A stretch of DNA of 7,958 nt. It comes from a virus (lineage: Duplodnaviria; Heunggongvirae; Uroviricota; Caudoviricetes). Numbering within the stretch: the stretch's first letter is position 1; each line of letters starts with the position of its first letter. A model generated the notes under the pieces. The model did no database searches. It was not told the origin of the DNA and saw nothing but the letters and a program-made list of their open reading frames with translations. Made by a program: the position numbers and the translations under genes. Shown here one piece after another: positions 1 through 7,958 of this stretch. The stretch is taken from positions 1-7,958 of IMG/VR virus record IMGVR_UViG_2579778613_000007. One strand, 5' to 3'.

Positions 1-228
1 GAGGGCTTTGCATTCTGCTTCGGTATACGTTTTACCGAGCATAATGTCTTTTCCGGTATGCCCGTAACATACAGTCCATACACCAACGATATCTTTATAT
101 GGTATGTAGCTGACGCCTTCCAGACCATCGTTACCACTTGGTCCAGTGATTAACACAGATGCTATAGCAATAGCCCCGCCACTTATCGCCGCTATTACGC
201 TATTTCGTAGTGCCGGTGACATTGCCAT
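1..228 (-). CDS. R: SAR endolysin (T4-lysozyme-type muramidase), phage 21 R-like; partial, 3' end lies beyond the window start
   Basis: ORF runs off position 1. ATG at 228-226 with GAGG 9 nt upstream (second ATG at 222-220). Translation [76 protein letters not shown]: Gly/Ala-rich signal-anchor-release segment followed by catalytic spacing E-x8-D-x5-T. Start overlaps the holin 3' end, as is usual in lambdoid lysis cassettes. Confidence 0.9.
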
Positions 229-403
229 TCAATCTGTCCTCGCGCTCTTTGCGCTTGTAGTACCAGTTGATGCCAAATGTGCCGACAGTACAAAGAATAC
301 CAATGATGACAGCCCAGTCATTCAGGGAGAGAATGCCACCCATCGCAGTCAGTCCTCCGAAGCTGTAACTGAACCATTCTCTGATTTTGTCCATACGGTA
401 CAT
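200..403 (-). CDS. Class II holin (pinholin-like, two predicted TM segments) with dual-start motif
   Basis: 67-aa [70 protein letters not shown]. Two hydrophobic segments, the first Gly/Ser-rich, and a charged C-terminus. Lies immediately upstream of and overlapping a SAR endolysin. Met1-Tyr-Arg-Met4 resembles holin/antiholin dual starts. SD GAAGGGG 6 nt upstream of Met1. Confidence 0.8.
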
Positions 404-1050: not shown

Positions 1051-1085
1051 GGGTCAAATTTACCCAACTTTATTCAAAAAGTCAA
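1050..1085 (-). promoter_or_regulatory. Late promoter pR' with overlapping qut (Q-utilisation) region
   Basis: Minus-strand sequence TTGACT - 17 nt - TAAATT - TGACCC - AACGATGGG. The -35 and -10 hexamers have 17 nt spacing, and the -10-like AACGAT at +1..+6 matches the sigma-dependent pause element of lambda pR'. Located 43 nt downstream of the Q stop codon. Confidence 0.7.
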
Positions 1086-1127
1086 TATCATGCCGTTAAT
1101 ATGTTGCCATCCGTGGCAATCATGCTG

Positions 1128-1751
1128 CTAACGTGTGACCGCATTCAAAATGTTGTCTGCGATTGACTCTTCTTTGTGGCATTGCACCACCAGAGCGTCA
1201 TACAGCGGCTTAACAGTGCGTGACCAGGTGGGTTGGGTAAGATTTGGGATTAGCATCGTCACAGCGCGATATGCGGCGCTTGCTGGCATCCTTGAATAGC
1301 CGACACCTTTGCATCTTCCGCACTCTTTCTCAACAACTCTCCCCCACAGCTCTGTTTTGGCAATATCAACCGCACGGCCTGTACCGTGACAATCTCTGCA
1401 TCTTGCGCCCGGCGTCGCGGCACTACGGCAATAATCCGCATAAGCGAATGTTGCGAGCACTTGCAGTACCTTTGCCTTAGTATTTCCTTCAAGCTTTGCC
1501 ACACCACGGTATTTCCCCGATACCTTGTGTGCAAATTGCATCAGATAGTTGATAGCCTTTTGTTTGTCGTTCTGGCTGAGTTCATGCTTACCGCAGAATG
1601 CAGCCATTCCGAATCCGGCTTGTGATTGCGCCATCCCCATAGCAGCCATCACATCAGTACCGGAAAGAGAGTCAGAAGCCGTAGCCCGTGGTGAGTCGCT
1701 CATCATCGGGCTTTTTGGCGAATGAAATTTAGCTACGCTTTCGAGTCTCAT
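1128..1751 (-). CDS. Q: Late-gene antiterminator Q (lambda Q type, zinc-binding)
   Basis: 207-aa ORF MRLESVAKFHSPKSPMMSDSPRATASD...CRDCHGTGRAVD...CGRCKGVGYS...NAVTR with a Cys4 zinc motif; matches lambda Q as I recall it. Followed by pR'/qut. Start overlaps the ninH stop (ATGA). Confidence 0.95.
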   Translation of the reverse strand: MRLESVAKFHSPKSPMMSDSPRATASDSLSGTDVMAAMGMAQSQAGFGMAAFCGKHELSQNDKQKAINYLMQFAHKVSGKYRGVAKLEGNTKAKVLQVLATFAYADYCRSAATPGARCRDCHGTGRAVDIAKTELWGRVVEKECGRCKGVGYSRMPASAAYRAVTMLIPNLTQPTWSRTVKPLYDALVVQCHKEESIADNILNAVTR

Positions 1752-1936
1752 GGCCTTCCCCTTTTGCCCTGTTTGACCATCAGGACGCCGTTAACTATTA
1801 CGTGACGCTCGCCTTTGCTGTCTCGGTTGTACTTGAGCACTGTTCCTCTTGCGCAGGAAAGCATCCTCGCCACTTCGGTCTGATTTCCTCGTGTCTGGAT
1901 AAGAAGCTCTGGTATCGTTTGAATTGTGGCGTTCAT
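1748..1936 (-). CDS. ninH: NinH-like small DNA-binding protein
   Basis: 62-aa ORF MNATIQTIPELLIQTRGNQTEVARMLSCARGTVLKYNRDSKGERHVIVNGVLMVKQGKRGRP. Shares the GNQTEVAR..C.RGTV.KY core with lambda NinH. Sits directly upstream of Q; ATGA overlaps with both neighbours. Confidence 0.8.
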   Translation of the reverse strand: MNATIQTIPELLIQTRGNQTEVARMLSCARGTVLKYNRDSKGERHVIVNGVLMVKQGKRGRP

Positions 1937-2295
1937 GCGTTCTCCAGTTCGGTGATTTTTATTCCAAGCCTTCCGCCTGGTGCTTTCACACCACGAATTA
2001 CGCGAATGTCATCGAATTGCTCGTCGTCTTCCGCAAATCCGGCGTGGATAAGTGAGTCGAGTAAACCTTTCAGGATGTTATCGAGGTCGCGGCGGCGGGA
2101 GTCTGGAACGTCTGCGATTACTTTGATGCGGAGTCGTGATTTGGTGAAAATGTCTAACTTGAGTTGGCGGATGATTTTCTGAACGTCTTTTCGGTATTTC
2201 TGGCCTTTATCGCTGATGTGGTATTGGCTTCCCCGTCTTCGCCAGTAGGTATTCACCGACGGCGGGTATGGAAGCACAAACTGATATTCGTTCAT
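1933..2295 (-). CDS. rusA: RusA-family Holliday junction resolvase
   Basis: 120-aa ORF MNEYQFVLPYPPSVNTYWRRRG...DVPDSRRRDLDNILKGLLDSL...GGRLGIKITELENA with the RusA catalytic acidic motif (RRRDLDN). Strong SD GGAGGG 8 nt upstream of the ATG at 2295. Confidence 0.9.
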   Translation of the reverse strand: MNEYQFVLPYPPSVNTYWRRRGSQYHISDKGQKYRKDVQKIIRQLKLDIFTKSRLRIKVIADVPDSRRRDLDNILKGLLDSLIHAGFAEDDEQFDDIRVIRGVKAPGGRLGIKITELENA

Positions 2296-2708
2296 GGCTT
2301 AATCTTTCCCTCCTTCAGCAGTATCGCCTGGCTGAATACGACAAAGAGTGCGCGGGATTGCCACATCGAGTATCAGCAAGGAGAGAATATCAATCATCGG
2401 AACGCGGCAGAGAACGGTGTAACGCAGCCAAAAAGCGGTTCATTCAGAGCAACCCATGGAAAAGAAAAGCCCACATCATCGTGGGTAATTTTTTGCGCGA
2501 CGGTAAGCTAATCCGACCACCACAATGTGAGTGCTGCGGATCAGAATGTAAACCACAGGCGCACCACTGCGACTACAGCAAACCAACCGATGTGATGTGG
2601 CTCTGCAAGTCATGTCATGTCGAGTGGCACAAACATAACAAACCTATCTACCCAGAAGAGGAACCAGTAACTCTCCCCTTCCCTCGTCACGCTATTCACG
2701 CAATTTAA
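2268..2708 (+). CDS. HNH-like (His-Me finger) nuclease; start codon uncertain
   Basis: C-terminal motif CECCGSECKPQAHHCDYSKPTDVMWLCKSCHVEWHKH fits the HNH pattern CxxCG...HH...WLCxxCHxxxH. The stop TAA overlaps the SD of the next gene. The ATG at 2268 has no good SD and overlaps the rusA start on the opposite strand by 28 nt; the true start may be internal (for example TTG at 2358). Confidence 0.55.
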   Translation: MEAQTDIRSWLNLSLLQQYRLAEYDKECAGLPHRVSARREYQSSERGRERCNAAKKRFIQSNPWKRKAHIIVGNFLRDGKLIRPPQCECCGSECKPQAHHCDYSKPTDVMWLCKSCHVEWHKHNKPIYPEEEPVTLPFPRHAIHAI

Positions 2709-2716
2709 GGACTTAC

Positions 2717-3265
2717 ATGAATCACTTGATGGTTGACCTTGAAACAATGGGCAACGGGCCATACGCGCCAGTTATTTCTATTGGGGCGGTATTCTTTGAC
2801 CCGAATACCGGAGAAACAGGAGAAGAGTTCTCGGTAAATATCTCGCTTGAGTCATCAATGCGATATCGGGCGCGTCCTGACGCTTCAACGATTTTATGGT
2901 GGATGGAACAGAGTGAAGAAGCCAGAAAATCGCTAACCAGCAACACTCAGGAGCTTTCAACGGCTCTTTCATGGTTATCTGAATTCATCATAAAGAACGC
3001 TAACCACAAATTCGTTCAGGTTTGGGGGAATGGAGCATCATTTGACTGCGTTATTCTCCGAAACAGTTATTCGCTGACAGGGCAGCCAGTTCCGTGGCAG
3101 TGGTGGAATGACCGCGATGTAAGAACAATCGTCGAGCTTGGAAAGGTAATAGGATTCGACCCTAAGCGAGATATGCCATTCAAAGGAACTCGTCACAACG
3201 CGCTTGATGATGCCATCCACCAAGCCAAATACGTTTCAGCAATCTGGAAAAAATTAGCTAAATAA
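2717..3265 (+). CDS. DnaQ-like DEDDh 3'-5' exonuclease
   Basis: 182-aa ORF with all three exonuclease motifs: Exo I MVDLETMG (D, E), Exo II VWGNGASFD (D), Exo III HNALDDAIHQ (H, D). SD AAGGA 5 nt upstream of the ATG. Confidence 0.8.
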   Translation: MNHLMVDLETMGNGPYAPVISIGAVFFDPNTGETGEEFSVNISLESSMRYRARPDASTILWWMEQSEEARKSLTSNTQELSTALSWLSEFIIKNANHKFVQVWGNGASFDCVILRNSYSLTGQPVPWQWWNDRDVRTIVELGKVIGFDPKRDMPFKGTRHNALDDAIHQAKYVSAIWKKLAK

Positions 3266-3281
3266 TCAACAGGAGAAAATC

Positions 3282-3575
3282 ATGCCAGCGCCTCTGTATG
3301 GTGCGGATGACCCGCGCCGCTGTTCCGGCAATTCCGTATCGGAGGTGCTGGCTAAATTCAGAAAAAACTACGACCTGATAATGTCGCTACCGCAGGAAAC
3401 GAAAGAGGAAAAGGAATTTCGCCATTGTATATGGCTTGCAGAGAAAGAAGAACGCGAGCGAATTTACCAGACATCAATCCGACCATTCCGCAAAGCCACA
3501 TATACCCACTTCCCTGAAATTGACCCGCGCCTGCGTAATTACCGCTCACGCTATGGCGCTATCAGTAATGACTGA
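3282..3575 (+). CDS. Hypothetical protein (97 aa)
   Basis: ATG at 3282 preceded by AGGAG; co-oriented, 16 nt after the exonuclease stop. No recognisable domain. Confidence 0.6.
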
Positions 3576-3585
3576 GGAATTTACC

Positions 3586-3753
3586 ATGAGAGGACTTGCA
3601 TACAATCCCGGCATTCTTCAGGCAGAAATGATTATTCGCCAACGCGTAAAGCCAATGCCATCGAGAGAGGAATTGCTTAAGAGAAAGAGTTTCGGTTCTG
3701 TTAATGACAACAAATATCTGAATGCGATGTGGCGCAAAGGAGGCAACCAGTGA
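3586..3753 (+). CDS. Hypothetical small protein (55 aa)
   Basis: ATG at 3586 with GAGG 8 nt upstream. The longer ORF from 3436 in the track overlaps the previous gene in another frame and is less likely. Ends in the repeated motif AGGAGGCAACCAGTGA. Confidence 0.5.
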
Positions 3754-3804
3754 GTAATTCAGCACGACTACAGCTTGGTTTTTCACCGCTATCAAAAAAC
3801 TATC

Positions 3805-4005
3805 ATGCTGGCAAAAATGCGCGATGTTGAAGGTGGGCGTATGCGCGTTGGCAATGATCCAGGTCGTGATGTTACCAATGAGGATGCTCAATTGGTGTGG
3901 CAACTGGTCATGGCTGAAGGTGGTGAGATCGCGTGGGAGCTGGATGATGGTTCTCGCATGGTGTTGAAGGCAGAAAAACAGGAGGCAACCAGTGAACAAG
4001 ATTGA
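3805..4005 (+). CDS. Hypothetical small protein; start uncertain (ORF open from TTG at 3775, first ATG at 3805, no clear SD)
   Basis: Open frame ...MLAKMRDVEGGRMRVGNDPGRDVTNEDAQLVWQLVMAEGGEIAWELDDGSRMVLKAEKQEATSEQD. Its 3' end overlaps the start of the next gene by 14 nt. It may be the downstream part of a frameshifted gene. Confidence 0.4.
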   Translation: MLAKMRDVEGGRMRVGNDPGRDVTNEDAQLVWQLVMAEGGEIAWELDDGSRMVLKAEKQEATSEQD

Positions 4006-4486
4006 CTATCAGGCACTGCGTGAGGCGGCAGAGCGTGCAATTCAGGCAATGGAACGCCTGTTAATGTTGCCAGTTGATGATGATCTGATAAGCGAACAGG
4101 AACTTAAAGATTTCGGTGTGGATATTGATGCGCTCAACGCCTTCAAATTTCTGGCCGGACCAGAAACCGTGCTGGCACTACTTGATGAACGGGAAGCAGA
4201 CAAAAAGCGCATTGCAGAACTGGAAGCTCGGGAAATAAAACCAGCCAAAGGTGAAGTTCTTGTCGTTGTTTCTGGTTTTACTGGTTGCGGAAAAAGCGCC
4301 ATTGCCGGGGAAATAGAAATCGCGATGAAGGCTATTGGTGTACCGGTTCAGTGGACTAATGGCGATGCGGAAAAGCGCATGACAGGAGCTGACTGGCTGA
4401 CAGCGATTGAGATGTACAAACCAACTGTGCGCATCGTGGAAGTTAATGTGCCACGCGTCGCTGGAATTCGCATCAAAGGAGAGTGA
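3992..4486 (+). CDS. Ead/Ea22-like early-region protein
   Basis: GTG start with AGGAGG 6 nt upstream. The N-terminal YQALREAAERA and central TVLALLDERE motifs match what I recall of Ead/Ea22-like prophage proteins. The C-terminal part carries a Walker-A-like GFTGCGKS. Confidence 0.6.
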   Translation: MNKIDYQALREAAERAIQAMERLLMLPVDDDLISEQELKDFGVDIDALNAFKFLAGPETVLALLDEREADKKRIAELEAREIKPAKGEVLVVVSGFTGCGKSAIAGEIEIAMKAIGVPVQWTNGDAEKRMTGADWLTAIEMYKPTVRIVEVNVPRVAGIRIKGE

Positions 4487-4487
4487 T

Positions 4488-4685
4488 ATGGATAAAAACA
4501 CCACTGCCTACTGGAGTCTGTCACTTGATACCGAATGTCCCAAATGTGGTCACAATTTCGATCTGCTTTGTGATCCAGATTTCTGGGAGTTTTCTGGAGC
4601 TAAACAGGCATGTGAAGAAATAAAAGGTTACGAAACATGCTGTCCAGAATGTAACCATGAATTTAAAACAGATTTCGTGTATTGA
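4488..4685 (+). CDS. Small zinc-ribbon protein (65 aa)
   Basis: MDKNTTAYWSLSLDTECPKCGHNFDLLCDPDFWEFSGAKQACEEIKGYETCCPECNHEFKTDFVY with two Cys pairs (CPKC ... CPEC). The ATG lies 1 nt after the upstream TGA within the repeated module AAAGGAGAGTGATATG. Confidence 0.6.
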   Translation: MDKNTTAYWSLSLDTECPKCGHNFDLLCDPDFWEFSGAKQACEEIKGYETCCPECNHEFKTDFVY

Positions 4686-4695
4686 GGCATAACAA

Positions 4696-4812
4696 ATGAC
4701 CACTATTACCAAAGAATGGCTACAGAAAACGATTACCAGCATTGAGTCAGCACGGGATGAAATGCCGTTCGGACTCGATGAAGATCAAAGCAACATGCTT
4801 ACCGCAATTTAA
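4696..4812 (+). CDS. Short ORF (38 aa), possibly the N-terminal remnant of a frameshifted gene
   Basis: ATGACCACTATTACC... (MTTITKEWLQKTITSIESARDEMPFGLDEDQSNMLTAI). Its first 11 nt are identical to the start of the DUF551-like gene at 4979, and the N-terminus resembles MTTIIDKK...LNELITNIEFAAR. Confidence 0.3.
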   Translation: MTTITKEWLQKTITSIESARDEMPFGLDEDQSNMLTAI

Positions 4813-4978
4813 AATTGCACTGGCATCACTGGAAGCAAAACCAATAGGTGCTTTCCACATTGCAGAACAGCAAGTTGACGGCACAAGTGACTATCTCAAG
4901 GATGGAGAATGGCCTATTGATAATGGGATTATTGAAGTCTACACCGCGCCGCCATGCTTCAGGGTAAAGGAGAGTGAT

Positions 4979-5542
4979 ATGACCACTATAATCGATAAGA
5001 AACAGTATCCAGGCGAGCAATATCTTAATGAGCTGATCACCAACATAGAGTTTGCTGCAAGGGCACCAGTTGAAGTCGTGAGAGCAATGGCAGCAGAGCT
5101 ACAGAAGCGGCGCGAAGCTGATAGTGCCGAACCTGCAAGTAATCATGAAGAGTTGCCACTTGATTATCTCCAAGGTCAAAAAGATGGTCTTGAATGGGCT
5201 GCGCAGCTTGCAGAAGCAAATCACCCACAAACTGGCGACTGGCTTTACGATGACCCGCTGGAGCTGGCTAAAGCTATCAGAAAAGGTCCTGACATGCCCG
5301 AATTCGATGGACCAGCTCCGGTAACTCCGGATGGCTGGATAAGCTGTAGTGAGCGAATGCCAGATGATGGTCAGCACGTAATTATTTTATGTGATGGCGC
5401 ATTCGTTCTTTATGCGCAATATCGAGACAGTGAGTTTTTTGATGTTGTCCGCAATGGTGAGGAGTTCTTCGAAACGCAGAGCCGCAATGTAACCCACTGG
5501 ATGCCGCTACCGGAACCGCCGCAGGAGGCTGACAATGGCTAA
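4979..5542 (+). CDS. DUF551-like phage protein; the same frame is open upstream to 4757/4742, so an N-terminally extended form is possible
   Basis: C-terminal PDGWISCSERMPDDGQHVIIL...NVTHWMPLPEPP is the pattern I associate with DUF551. The ATG at 4979 is preceded by AAAGGAGAGTGAT, the same RBS module as at 4475-4490. Confidence 0.65.
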   Translation: MTTIIDKKQYPGEQYLNELITNIEFAARAPVEVVRAMAAELQKRREADSAEPASNHEELPLDYLQGQKDGLEWAAQLAEANHPQTGDWLYDDPLELAKAIRKGPDMPEFDGPAPVTPDGWISCSERMPDDGQHVIILCDGAFVLYAQYRDSEFFDVVRNGEEFFETQSRNVTHWMPLPEPPQEADNG

Positions 5543-5819
5543 TCTGCAACTGGCAGTGAACGGCGAATACTTCGACCAGATGAAGCGGGGCGAGAAAACG
5601 GAAGAGTATCGCCTGTGTAATGACTACTGGAATAAGCGAATTATGTTCCGGGAGTATGACCGCCTGATTATCACAAAGGGATATCCGAAGCGCGACGATT
5701 CCAGTCGCAGAATTGATGTTCCGTATGGTGGATATGAAATCAAGACAATCACACATCCGCACTTCGGCGATAAACCGGTAAAGGTGTTCGCGATAAAGGT
5801 GAATATCGGCAATGAATAA
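5535..5819 (+). CDS. ASCH/PUA-like small protein (94 aa)
   Basis: MANLQLAVNGEYFDQMKRGEKTEEYRL... The G-x-K-T-x-E-x-R signature near the N-terminus and the size fit an ASCH-type fold. AGGAGG 6 nt upstream of the ATG; overlaps the DUF551-like gene stop by 8 nt. Confidence 0.5.
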   Translation: MANLQLAVNGEYFDQMKRGEKTEEYRLCNDYWNKRIMFREYDRLIITKGYPKRDDSSRRIDVPYGGYEIKTITHPHFGDKPVKVFAIKVNIGNE

Positions 5820-5822
5820 CAT

Positions 5823-5847
5823 CCTCGCACTCGCGGGGATTTCTTTT
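5823..5847 (+). terminator. Rho-independent terminator (first of a tandem pair)
   Basis: Stem CCTCGC-actc-GCGGGG (one G-U pair) followed by ATTTCTTTT, 4 nt after the ASCH-like stop codon. Confidence 0.55.
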
Positions 5848-5852
5848 ATCTG

Positions 5853-5877
5853 AACTCGCTACGGCGAGTTTTGTTTT
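5853..5877 (+). terminator. Rho-independent terminator (second of a tandem pair)
   Basis: Stem AACTCGC-tacg-GCGAGTT followed by TTGTTTT. Confidence 0.6.
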
Positions 5878-5890
5878 ATGGAGACAAGAA

Positions 5891-6235
5891 ATGTCAGATT
5901 TGGCTATGAAGATTTTGAAATGGCAATCGACTGGCGATGTCGGCATCAGTAGCGCAACTCTTGCCTCAATCGCATGTGGACTGAAAAAGAATATCTATGG
6001 TCATCACTTCGGCGCTCCACATGATGCAGCCGATTTCCGGCGATGCGTTGCACTTGTTGAGCAGATTCCAGAAATCAGAGATTCATTCGACAAGGTTGCA
6101 AAGCGCGTTCCGGCATTCAAAGGAATCCTCAACGAATGGGATTCACTCGTTGCTCTGTTGAAGTCTGAAATGAAGACGTACGGGAACAAAGCACCAGAGA
6201 CTTACAGAAGAATCAGCGAGCTACGCAAGGACTAA
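5891..6235 (+). CDS. Hypothetical protein (114 aa), moron-like gene flanked by terminators
   Basis: ATG at 5891 with GGAG 7 nt upstream. Product MSDLAMKILKWQSTGDVGISSATLASIACGLKKNIYGHHFGAPHDAADFRRCVALVEQIPEIRD... has no domain I recognise. Terminators lie on both sides. Confidence 0.6.
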   Translation: MSDLAMKILKWQSTGDVGISSATLASIACGLKKNIYGHHFGAPHDAADFRRCVALVEQIPEIRDSFDKVAKRVPAFKGILNEWDSLVALLKSEMKTYGNKAPETYRRISELRKD

Positions 6236-6292
6236 CCCGCCTCACACTCGATGAGGCATTTTCATTTATCAAGATATCCAGACCTACCATCG

Positions 6293-6313
6293 CCGCATCA
6301 ATGCGGTTTTTTT
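6293..6313 (+). terminator. Rho-independent terminator
   Basis: Stem CCGCA-tcaa-TGCGG followed by TTTTTTT, 58 nt after the stop of the 114-aa gene. Confidence 0.65.
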
Positions 6314-6358
6314 ATTGCCTGATTTGCAGGTTCGATTCCCTATTCGGAGATAGCACTC

Positions 6359-6559
6359 ATGCAACACGAACTACAACCTGATTCACTGGTTGATTTGAAA
6401 TTCATCATGGCCGATACTGGCTTCGGTAAAACCTTCATCTACGACCGGATTAAGTCCGGCGACCTGCCAAAAGCCAAAGTTATCCACGGACGAGCAAGAT
6501 GGTTATATCGTGACCATTGTGAGTTCAAAAATAAGCTCTTAAGTCGCGCCAATGGGTAA
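6359..6559 (+). CDS. AlpA/Xis-family excisionase-like DNA-binding protein
   Basis: 66-aa ORF MQHELQPDSLVDLKFIMADTGFGKTFIYDRIKSGDLPKAKVIHGRARWLYRDHCEF... Shows the AlpA-type winged-helix pattern (I..TG.GKT.IY..I..G..P...VI.GRA.W). GGAG 9 nt upstream of the ATG. Confidence 0.8.
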   Translation: MQHELQPDSLVDLKFIMADTGFGKTFIYDRIKSGDLPKAKVIHGRARWLYRDHCEFKNKLLSRANG

Positions 6560-6609
6560 AATAGCGGGTAAAATATTTTTCACATATAAAAAATACCATT
6601 CCAATCAAT

Positions 6610-6641
6610 CCCCTGCCGCTTCAAGTAGATGTCTGCAGGGG
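6610..6641. repeat. Inverted repeat CCCCTGC - 18 nt - GCAGGGG in the ORF-free tract
   Basis: Perfect 7 bp inverted repeat, preceded by an AT-rich stretch (6572-6598). Function unknown. Confidence 0.3.
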
Positions 6642-7035
6642 ACACCAGATACCCTTCAAACGAAATCTACCTTCACCCCGTAAAAGATGGGTTTGGCAGC
6701 ACACTTGCCTTATATCTACTCATTTTTACTGCAACAGGTTGAAATCTCAGCACTGTCAGAAAGCGCTGATGACTAAACAGCCCTGGGCCGGGCGATGTAA
6801 CCATCACACAGAATCCTGATAGCGAAATATGGCGTGACTCGATACTTCACTCCGCAATGCATTCCTTGATGAATTCGCAGGACCGTGATACACGGGACAG
6901 GTCACTGAATGACGACAATGTCCTGGAAATCAGCGAACCGCGCATCTGAAGTACATTTGAGCGACTGTACCAGAACATGAATGAGGCGTTTGGATTAGGC
7001 GATTATTAGCAGGGCTAAGCATTTTACTATTATTA

Positions 7036-7088: not shown

Positions 7089-7958
7089 CTATATTGCTGA
7101 AGGTACAGGCGTTTCCATAACTATTTGCTCGCGTTTTTTACTCAAGAAGAAAATGCCAAATAGCAACATCAGGCAGACAATACCCGAAATTGCGAAGAAA
7201 ACTGTCTGGTAGCCTGCGTGGTCAAAGAGTATCCCAGTCGGCGTTGAAAGCAGCACAATCCCAAGCGAACTGGCAATTTGAAAACCAATCAGAAAGATCG
7301 TCGACGACAGGCGCTTATCAAAATTTGCCACGCTGTATTTGAAGACGGATATGACACAAAGTGGAACCTCAATAGCATGTAACAGCTTCACTAATGAAAT
7401 AATCCAGGGGTTAACGAACAGCGCGCAGGAAAGGATACGCAACGCCATAATCACAACACCGATAAGTAATGCATTTTTTGGCCCTACCCGATTCACAAAG
7501 AAAGGAATAATCGCCATGCATAGCGCTTCGAGTACCACCTGGAATGAGTTGAGATAACCATACAGGCGCGTTCCTACATCGTGTGATTCGAATAAACCTG
7601 CATAAAAGACAGGAAAAAGTTGTTGATCAAAAATGTTATAGAAAGACCACGTCCCCACAATAAATATGACGAAAACCCAGAAGTTTCGATCCTTGAAAAC
7701 TGCGATAAAATCCTCTTTTTTTACCCCTCCCGCATCCGCCGCTACGCACTGGTGATCCTTATCTTTAAAACACATGTTGATCATCATAAATACAGCGCCA
7801 AATAGCGAGACCAACCAGAAGTTGATATGGGGACTGATACTAAAAAATATGCCGGCAAAGAACGCGCCAATAGCATAGCCAAAAGATCCCCAGGCGCGCG
7901 CTGTTCCATATTCGAAATGAAAATTTCGCGCCATTTTTTCGGTGAAGCTGTCAAGCAA
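7089..7958 (-). CDS. LacY-family oligosaccharide:H+ symporter (MFS), possibly a CscB-like sucrose permease; partial, 5' end beyond the window end
   Basis: The 289-aa C-terminal portion aligns by eye with LacY: EKMARNFHFEYGTARAWG vs EKVSRRSNFEFGRARMFG, DQQLFPVFY vs DQQFANFF, PKNALLIGVVIMALRI vs GKNALLLAGTIMSVRI, LHAIEVP vs LHMFEVP (LacY H322/E325 region). Multiple hydrophobic TM segments. AT-rich codon usage unlike the phage part. Confidence 0.9.
   Translation of the reverse strand: MLDSFTEKMARNFHFEYGTARAWGSFGYAIGAFFAGIFFSISPHINFWLVSLFGAVFMMINMCFKDKDHQCVAADAGGVKKEDFIAVFKDRNFWVFVIFIVGTWSFYNIFDQQLFPVFYAGLFESHDVGTRLYGYLNSFQVVLEALCMAIIPFFVNRVGPKNALLIGVVIMALRILSCALFVNPWIISLVKLLHAIEVPLCVISVFKYSVANFDKRLSSTIFLIGFQIASSLGIVLLSTPTGILFDHAGYQTVFFAISGIVCLMLLFGIFFLSKKREQIVMETPVPSAI

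Follow-up and report, generated by a model that had tools for sequence, protein, structure and literature searches.

A probable cryptic P22-like prophage at Escherichia coli argW with head-to-head rusA and early-left genes

Prophages at argW and the layout of the window

Among the closest described systems is KplE1 (CPS-53), a cryptic prophage at argW of Escherichia coli K-12 that possesses no repressor and is not SOS-inducible (PMC2951348). The argW recombination module is common to KplE1, HK620, Sf6, and CUS-3; its core of 16 nt, CTGCAGGGGACACCAT, is repeated at both prophage ends, and the integrase has its own promoter at attL, uncoupled from the excisionase and transcribed separately (PMC2951348). 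In the middle of KplE1, minus-strand genes meet plus-strand genes, yfdO (minus) and yfdP (plus) lying 358 bp apart with no repressor (L010, NC_000913.3 2472878-2473966). Another defective prophage of E. coli K-12, DLP12, carries rusA, Q (quuD), and lysis genes without a working early region; it is of a different phage lineage and decay history, is inserted at argU (PMC2951348), and is likened to the present locus by its described gene content.

Sf6, HK620, Kapi1, IME10, CurroJimenez_Bas106 (Bas106), and the prophage of E. coli WP7-S17-ESBL-01 (L004) resemble the locus under study in gene order and excisionase. In intact relatives of this kind, transcripts reading through from pR would serve rusA-ninH-Q, and pL would drive the plus-strand genes. 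The intact P22-like relatives at argW are 96-99% identical in DNA on each side of the joint described below, with L004 also sharing the chromosomal neighbourhood, but differ in that ybcO and an endonuclease gene are separated by 10-12 kb of DNA with nin, replication, immunity, and recombination functions.

The window analysed here is the whole stretch of 7,958 nt. Judged by its sequence, it covers the half towards attR of a temperate, P22-like prophage in the Sf6/HK620/Kapi1/KplE1 group, and the element is a prophage of the P22/Sf6/HK620/KplE1 type located at E. coli argW next to the sucrose-utilisation (csc) genes. A first-pass annotation, made from the letters alone, had looked to lambda and phage 21/DLP12 for relatives; these are found instead among the P22-like argW phages. 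Its central observation, that rusA and an operon of early-left genes abut head-to-head, was borne out by the open reading frame (ORF) list, the sequence, and two homology blocks. The features below were assigned from the program-made ORF list together with Pfam and PHROG profile searches of the window.

1-222, minus strand: 5' part of an endolysin gene (Phage_lysozyme), which runs past the left window end
200-403, minus strand: class II holin, 67 aa (Pfam Phage_holin_2_3, E 4e-21)
1057-1085, minus strand: pR'-like late promoter (TTGACT, 17-nt spacer, TAAATT; sigma-70 consensus match)
1128-1751, minus strand: late antiterminator Q, 207 aa (Pfam Antiterm PF03589, E 6e-58)
1748-1936, minus strand: ninH (Pfam Phage_NinH, E 2e-24)
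1933-2295, minus strand: rusA Holliday-junction resolvase, 120 aa, intact (Pfam RusA, E 1.6e-15)
2292-2330, minus strand: ybcO (DUF1364) remnant, the last 12 codons (QAILLKEGKIKP) plus stop, aligning to the 3' end of the 96-aa ybcO of L004
2326-2330, no strand: probable deletion joint, a 5-bp microhomology, GCCTG, common to both parental sequences (alignment and BLAST end points)
2326-2708, plus strand: phage endonuclease, 5'-truncated, homologue of Sf6 gene 26 (PHROG 2340, Sf6 gene 26 match)
2717-3265, plus strand: 3'-5' exonuclease (Rv2179c-like), intact (Pfam PF16473, E 3e-73)
3282-3575, plus strand: Abc2 anti-RecBCD protein, intact (Pfam Anti-RecBCD_p2, E 6e-64, full profile length)
Within 3586-6235, plus strand: early-left accessory genes for DUF2737, DUF7446, Ea22-like, and 65-aa zinc-ribbon proteins (Pfam/PHROG)
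Within 3586-6235, plus strand: early-left accessory genes for DUF551, ASCH-like (phrog_625), and phrog_1229 proteins (Pfam/PHROG)
6359-6559, plus strand: torI excisionase, a recombination directionality factor of the KplE1/HK620/Sf6 module (66 of 66 residues as in K-12 TorI)
6633-6647, plus strand: attR core CTGCAGGGGACACCA (argW 3' end), the right prophage end (identical to both the 3' end of K-12 argW and the pawZ repeat)
7089-7958, minus strand: cscB sucrose permease, C-terminal 289 codons, chromosomal and outside the prophage (Pfam LacY_symp, positions 125-412 of 413)

The minus-strand half holds late and nin-region genes. The whole endolysin gene encodes 165 aa on a contig 100% identical to the window (L006, 12074-12571). 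Identical copies of the holin protein occur within a standard P22-like late region in all 10 places shown (10/10), and an identical RusA protein is found in intact phage contexts on contigs L005 and L008. The rusA start at 2295, credited in the first-pass annotation with a strong Shine-Dalgarno sequence, is indeed preceded by AAGGAGGG, 13 nt upstream of the ATG. The TTGACT/TAAATT site lies 43 nt downstream of the Q stop codon, at the place expected for pR', and is regarded as a putative pR' with its function read from position. Between this site and the holin gene, at about 650-730 on the minus strand, is a tRNA-like stretch (…GGTTCGATTCCGGCC…), and related phages Bas106, Kapi1, and mEp506 possess tRNA-Thr and tRNA-Asn at the corresponding position. 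ARAGORN and Rfam called no tRNA genes or RNA families across the window, this stretch included; it is probably a decayed or partial tRNA gene.

On the other strand, early-left-type genes run gap-free from the endonuclease-like ORF up to the excisionase. The accessory block (3586-6235) is also backed by the gene calls of an identical contig (L007), with the exception that the gene callers chose another start for the 266-aa DUF551 ORF, which had no match in an exact-protein look-up. The torI gene ends 74 nt before the attR core, and attR holds 15 of the 16 nt of the recombination core. TorI is annotated in E. coli loci L001, L002, L004, and L021, all four of which share the argW/torI/csc neighbourhood. 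Because the integrase gene sits at attL and is transcribed separately, a missing int beside xis is normal for the argW group, and it should not be counted in annotation as a second lesion.

Inspection of the flanks, which the first-pass annotation had proposed, was carried out on L006, which reaches 8 kb past the left window end. This region comprises the endolysin, Rz, the small and large terminase subunits, a P22 portal, and a scaffold gene, such that the holin-endolysin-Rz cassette is complete and is accompanied by head genes. With the pR'-like promoter located past Q, the earlier description of a complete Q-pR'-lysis unit stands. Structural genes are thus present, and a repressor is absent within 10 kb. 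The same agreement holds for the reported lack of immunity, N, and replication modules: no repressor, Cro, N, cII, or replication genes were found between rusA and the plus-strand genes or anywhere else in the window, and no repressor/cro/O/P or other replication module was found within 10 kb on either side of rusA on L006; a relocated regulatory module or further lesions may lie beyond this, towards the tail genes, intS, and attL.

Two genes of the HNH_3 family were also observed on L006 (16542-17042 and 20187-20363), both encoded on the other strand from the head genes. One separates the large terminase gene from the portal gene, and the second lies past the scaffold gene. In each of the 10 intact relatives shown, nothing intervenes between terminase and portal, and the scaffold is followed by no HNH gene; the two are probably homing-endonuclease insertions.

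The joint and the genes that it cuts

The alignment-based search for breakpoints suggested by the first-pass annotation was run by BLAST against complete E. coli genomes and phage records, many of which align to one side of the junction or the other. Homology on the rusA side ends at base 2330, and homology on the early-left side begins at base 2326, so that the two blocks meet at 2326-2330, a pattern not attributable to chance. When compared with the WP7-S17-ESBL-01 prophage, an apparently intact element at this argW/torI/csc locus, window 1747-2330 corresponds to L004 509-1092 at 96.9% identity, and window 2326-3589 corresponds to L004 12001-13267 at 98.5% identity in the same orientation as the left block. 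The intervening L004 1093-12000 (10,908 bp) is without a counterpart in the window. An alignment of four sequences (the window, the left and right flanks of L004, and Bas106) displays the exchange directly: up to and including ...CAGCAGTATCGCCTG the window agrees with the left parent, and from GCCTGGCTGAATACGAC... onward with the right one, with the switch located inside GCCTG, the only shared bases. A change of parent within GCCTG is the signature of a microhomology-mediated deletion, and we consider it very probable, on this sequence evidence, that one collinear internal deletion of about 10.9 kb made the head-to-head junction. Since L004 is a 97-98.5% relative in a mosaic group, both the length of the lost segment and its gene list are estimated. 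The large internal deletion and defective prophage offered as one possibility in the first-pass annotation are accordingly supported by the collinear gap of about 10.9 kb, the microhomology, and two truncated genes.

In the proposed event, illegitimate recombination between two GCCTG pentamers about 10.9 kb apart would have removed, in a single step, the segment that starts within ybcO, a gene of the nin region, and ends within the endonuclease gene that follows ssb. The annotation of the corresponding interval in L004 lists most of ybcO (DUF1364), a hypothetical gene, ninF, ninX, ninE, ninB, and two hypothetical genes; a toprim protein/primase, a replication protein, DUF2740, cII, cro, and a LexA-family (S24) repressor; and several small genes, ral, DUF2528, kil, a Rad52-family annealing protein (erf), and ssb. 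An unannotated endonuclease ORF follows at L004 11904-12383, and its 5' end belongs to the missing segment. CurroJimenez_Bas106 displays the same gene order as L004 with N and cIII annotated, and the same layout was observed in all ten P22-like prophages retrieved via the holin protein, which serve as the baseline of normal architecture. By the standard layout, in which they lie beside the repressor and cro as in lambdoid phages, the operators, pL, pR, and N would have been lost as well; early promoters and operators are not annotated in the comparators, and their placement is assumed from other lambdoid phages.

Both ends of the deletion fall within genes. The ybcO remnant constitutes the left edge. 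On the right, the endonuclease is without its first 32 codons (MKICSRCHQQKEERDFQIRRASRDGLTAACRAC), which hold a CxxC...CxxC zinc ribbon: pairwise alignment of the window ORF with the 159-aa Bas106 endonuclease begins at Bas106 residue 33, and the match to PHROG 2340 'endonuclease' (E 9e-41) covers the profile from position 57 of 171 only. The label 'HNH' given to this gene in the first-pass annotation is a putative one. It draws on the PHROG 2340 'endonuclease' match and a CxxC...HH...CxxCH motif visible in the ORF; neither the window ORF nor the full-length Bas106 homologue matched a Pfam HNH family at E values up to 1.

The ORF at 2268-2708 (plus strand) is a chimera, in which 19-20 codons antisense to rusA/ybcO are in frame with the endonuclease from codon 33 onward. 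Its 28-nt overlap with the rusA start, reported earlier for the first plus-strand ORF, is real, but the start itself is a fusion artefact and not that of a native gene. The chimeric 146-aa protein was without a match in the exact-protein look-up, and the gene calls of three identical contigs omit the ORF, which should be annotated as a truncated, chimeric pseudogene. Its first 21 residues (2268-2330, plus strand, antisense to the rusA start) match PHROG 10845 (E 1e-11), indicating that the ORF antisense to the rusA 5' end is annotated as a protein in phage genomes; PHROG 10845, of unknown function, is probably a spurious family. A hairpin at 2469-2486, inside the endonuclease coding sequence, was also observed to score as intrinsic-terminator-like on both strands, with GCCCACATCATCGTGGGT then a T run on the plus strand and CCCACGATGATGTGGG then CTTTTCTTTT on the minus strand. 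As a minus-strand element about 175 nt upstream of rusA, it could, on its sequence, block antisense read-through into rusA-ninH-Q.

Distribution of the junction and other explanations for it

Carrier contigs were retrieved via an exact look-up of the RusA protein and are 50-211 kb in length. All 7,958 bases of the window are 100% identical to contigs of GCA_012387735.2 and GCA_000503575.1, and the Logan assembly of SRR6072397 is identical over 5,844 bases, junction included. None of the 5,426 complete E. coli genomes searched carries the junction, and neither does any phage record; a related intact phage with the same junction was what the first-pass annotation had named as a case against its reading. 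An exact search with the 27-nt junction retrieved 0 GTDB representative genomes, a result that shows only that the E. coli representative lacks the junction. The junction is confined to a few identical draft assemblies and is lineage-restricted. A recent deletion is probable, given that every retained ORF is intact and that the carrier contigs do not differ, although intact ORFs could also reflect selection on some of these genes.

A misassembly that fused two prophage fragments at a short repeat might be suspected, given that prophage repeats often break or mis-join short-read assemblies and that the joint sits at a short shared sequence. Yet a repeat of 5 bp falls well below the length that could mislead an assembler, and the same junction is present in two NCBI assemblies and in an independent Logan assembly of a separate run, leaving an assembly artefact hardly credible. 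The sequence could also be genuine and the joint the product of illegitimate recombination between two elements, for instance an incoming P22-like or lambdoid phage and an older argW remnant already without its immunity region. The P22-like argW group is highly mosaic, older and differently truncated remnants occupy the argW site in other strains, and the best relatives of the two sides differ (L005, Kapi1, and HK542 at 99.2-99.7% on the left; IME10, N7, and L004 at 98.5-99.3% on the right). Order and orientation of both sides are nevertheless those of a single intact prophage, L004, for which one deletion is the simplest account, and we regard an origin from two elements as unlikely; it would yield the same product, a defective prophage without immunity or replication genes.

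The first-pass annotation had also entertained a satellite or domesticated lysis module, that is, a functional noncanonical element (with a lysis or packaging role) whose head-to-head layout is native and selected. The intactness of all retained ORFs, the survival of the Q-pR'-lysis unit, the excisionase, and attR, and the recurrence of central-region loss at the argW locus in other strains are the observations in its favor. The joint, though, cuts two genes, leaving a 12-codon stump and a headless endonuclease; the DNA covered holds no replication, regulatory, or helper-hijacking genes; terminase, portal, and scaffold are kept, unlike in satellites; no promoter is apparent at the joint; and the junction occurs in 0 of 5,426 complete genomes and in no phage records. 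With terminase, portal, and scaffold kept, genes cut, and the junction present in a few identical assemblies, this suggestion found no support, and we judge it highly improbable. Assignment to the known satellite types (PICI, P4-like) was tried and rejected, as replication and regulatory genes of its own are absent from the window and from 10 kb on each side of rusA, and lysis, terminase, portal, and scaffold genes are present on L006. A single internal deletion in an intact argW prophage is the reading adopted in what follows.

Predicted silence of the element and other remnants at argW

A prophage that lost this segment could neither replicate nor be SOS-induced, and it would need no repressor, both early promoters being gone. 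With their native promoters lost, neither rusA-ninH-Q nor the remaining early-left genes should be transcribed to any real extent. If Q is lacking, pR' transcripts should stop at the late terminator, keeping the intact lysis and head genes off. The element would be carried passively as a cryptic prophage, and it may have kept the ability to excise through its TorI/attR module, an ability demonstrated in KplE1. Apart from the pR'-like match, no sigma-70 consensus sites were detected in 1100-7000 on either strand at the scanner's threshold. A fusion-created promoter at the joint was looked for with a relaxed scan of 2100-2800, which gave only three matches, all weak (8-9 of 12); in the two closest to the joint the spacer is 19 nt long. 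The absence of consensus promoters, in itself weak evidence, suggests that the remaining genes are silent, and three precedents support this picture: the rusA gene of DLP12 is quiescent until activated by an upstream IS2 or IS10 insertion (PMC1636454), KplE1 has neither repressor nor SOS inducibility as noted above, and Rho silences toxic prophage genes (PMC12360218). The prophage is most likely silent and non-inducible, and the lysis genes, potentially lethal, would be harmless only because Q lost its promoter. As reconstructed here, the locus would be a clean example of prophage lock-in, in which one microhomology-mediated deletion takes the repressor along with both early promoters. Prophage remnants of this sort are known to provide a store of genes with which incoming phages can recombine.

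The element keeps its excisionase, attR, terminases, head genes, Q-dependent late operon, and lysis cassette and is short of its own early control only, from which it is conceivable that a superinfecting P22-like phage with a compatible Q could switch on the late genes in trans, resulting in premature lysis or in packaging of the csc/dsd region. We consider this decidedly improbable. If true, premature lysis would protect the population in the manner of abortive infection; the alternative outcome would be headful packaging in situ, with transduction of the adjacent csc/dsd region.

Prophages at argW commonly lose their central control region, as evidenced by the comparable head-to-head layout of KplE1 in K-12. 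KplE1 and the present element share the integration site, the core repeat, and an identical TorI; KplE1 has no repressor module, and none is present here as far as 10 kb on each side of rusA. KplE1 differs in being reduced to 10.2 kb, without lysis and head genes and with other internal genes, and only window 6239-6647 aligns to it (93%). The present element, in contrast, keeps Q, the lysis cassette, terminase, portal, and scaffold and, over the DNA covered, displays one clean deletion. KplE1 is the older and more degraded argW member of the two. Cryptic prophages that arose by internal deletion are well known, and the locus adds one more to them, within the argW P22-like group; it should be labelled a defective P22-like prophage at argW. 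Its main value is for annotation; nothing about the junction challenges current understanding, and the deletion represents an ordinary route to prophage defectiveness.

Other head-to-head joints were observed at the argW/csc locus in PI6, CUVET18-1475, and ECL27977, with their right ends inside abc2. The three right ends lie within about 3 nt of one another, near window 3499-3503 (joint positions about 9981 in L001, about 9799 in L002, and about 6003 in L021), and two of the three joints read CTGTATAC. Their left partners are unrelated, comprising a KilAC antirepressor, a Ser/Thr phosphatase, and P22 gp16 ejection-protein fragments, and the PI6 and CUVET18-1475 joints each occur in one of the 5,426 complete genomes. 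The shared end points may reflect a breakage hot spot or anchored nested deletions. In the window abc2 is intact, and these joints are separate from the event described here.

Beyond attR, in the chromosomal flank, cscB is a pseudogene in the carrier lineage. A nonsense mutation at codon 99 (IYVYEPLL to IYVY*PLL) divides the gene into ORFs of 98 and 289 aa (L007 3960-4256 and 4338-5207), the distal of which is window 7089-7958; set against the intact gene of PI6, the sequence has no indels and is 98.96% identical.
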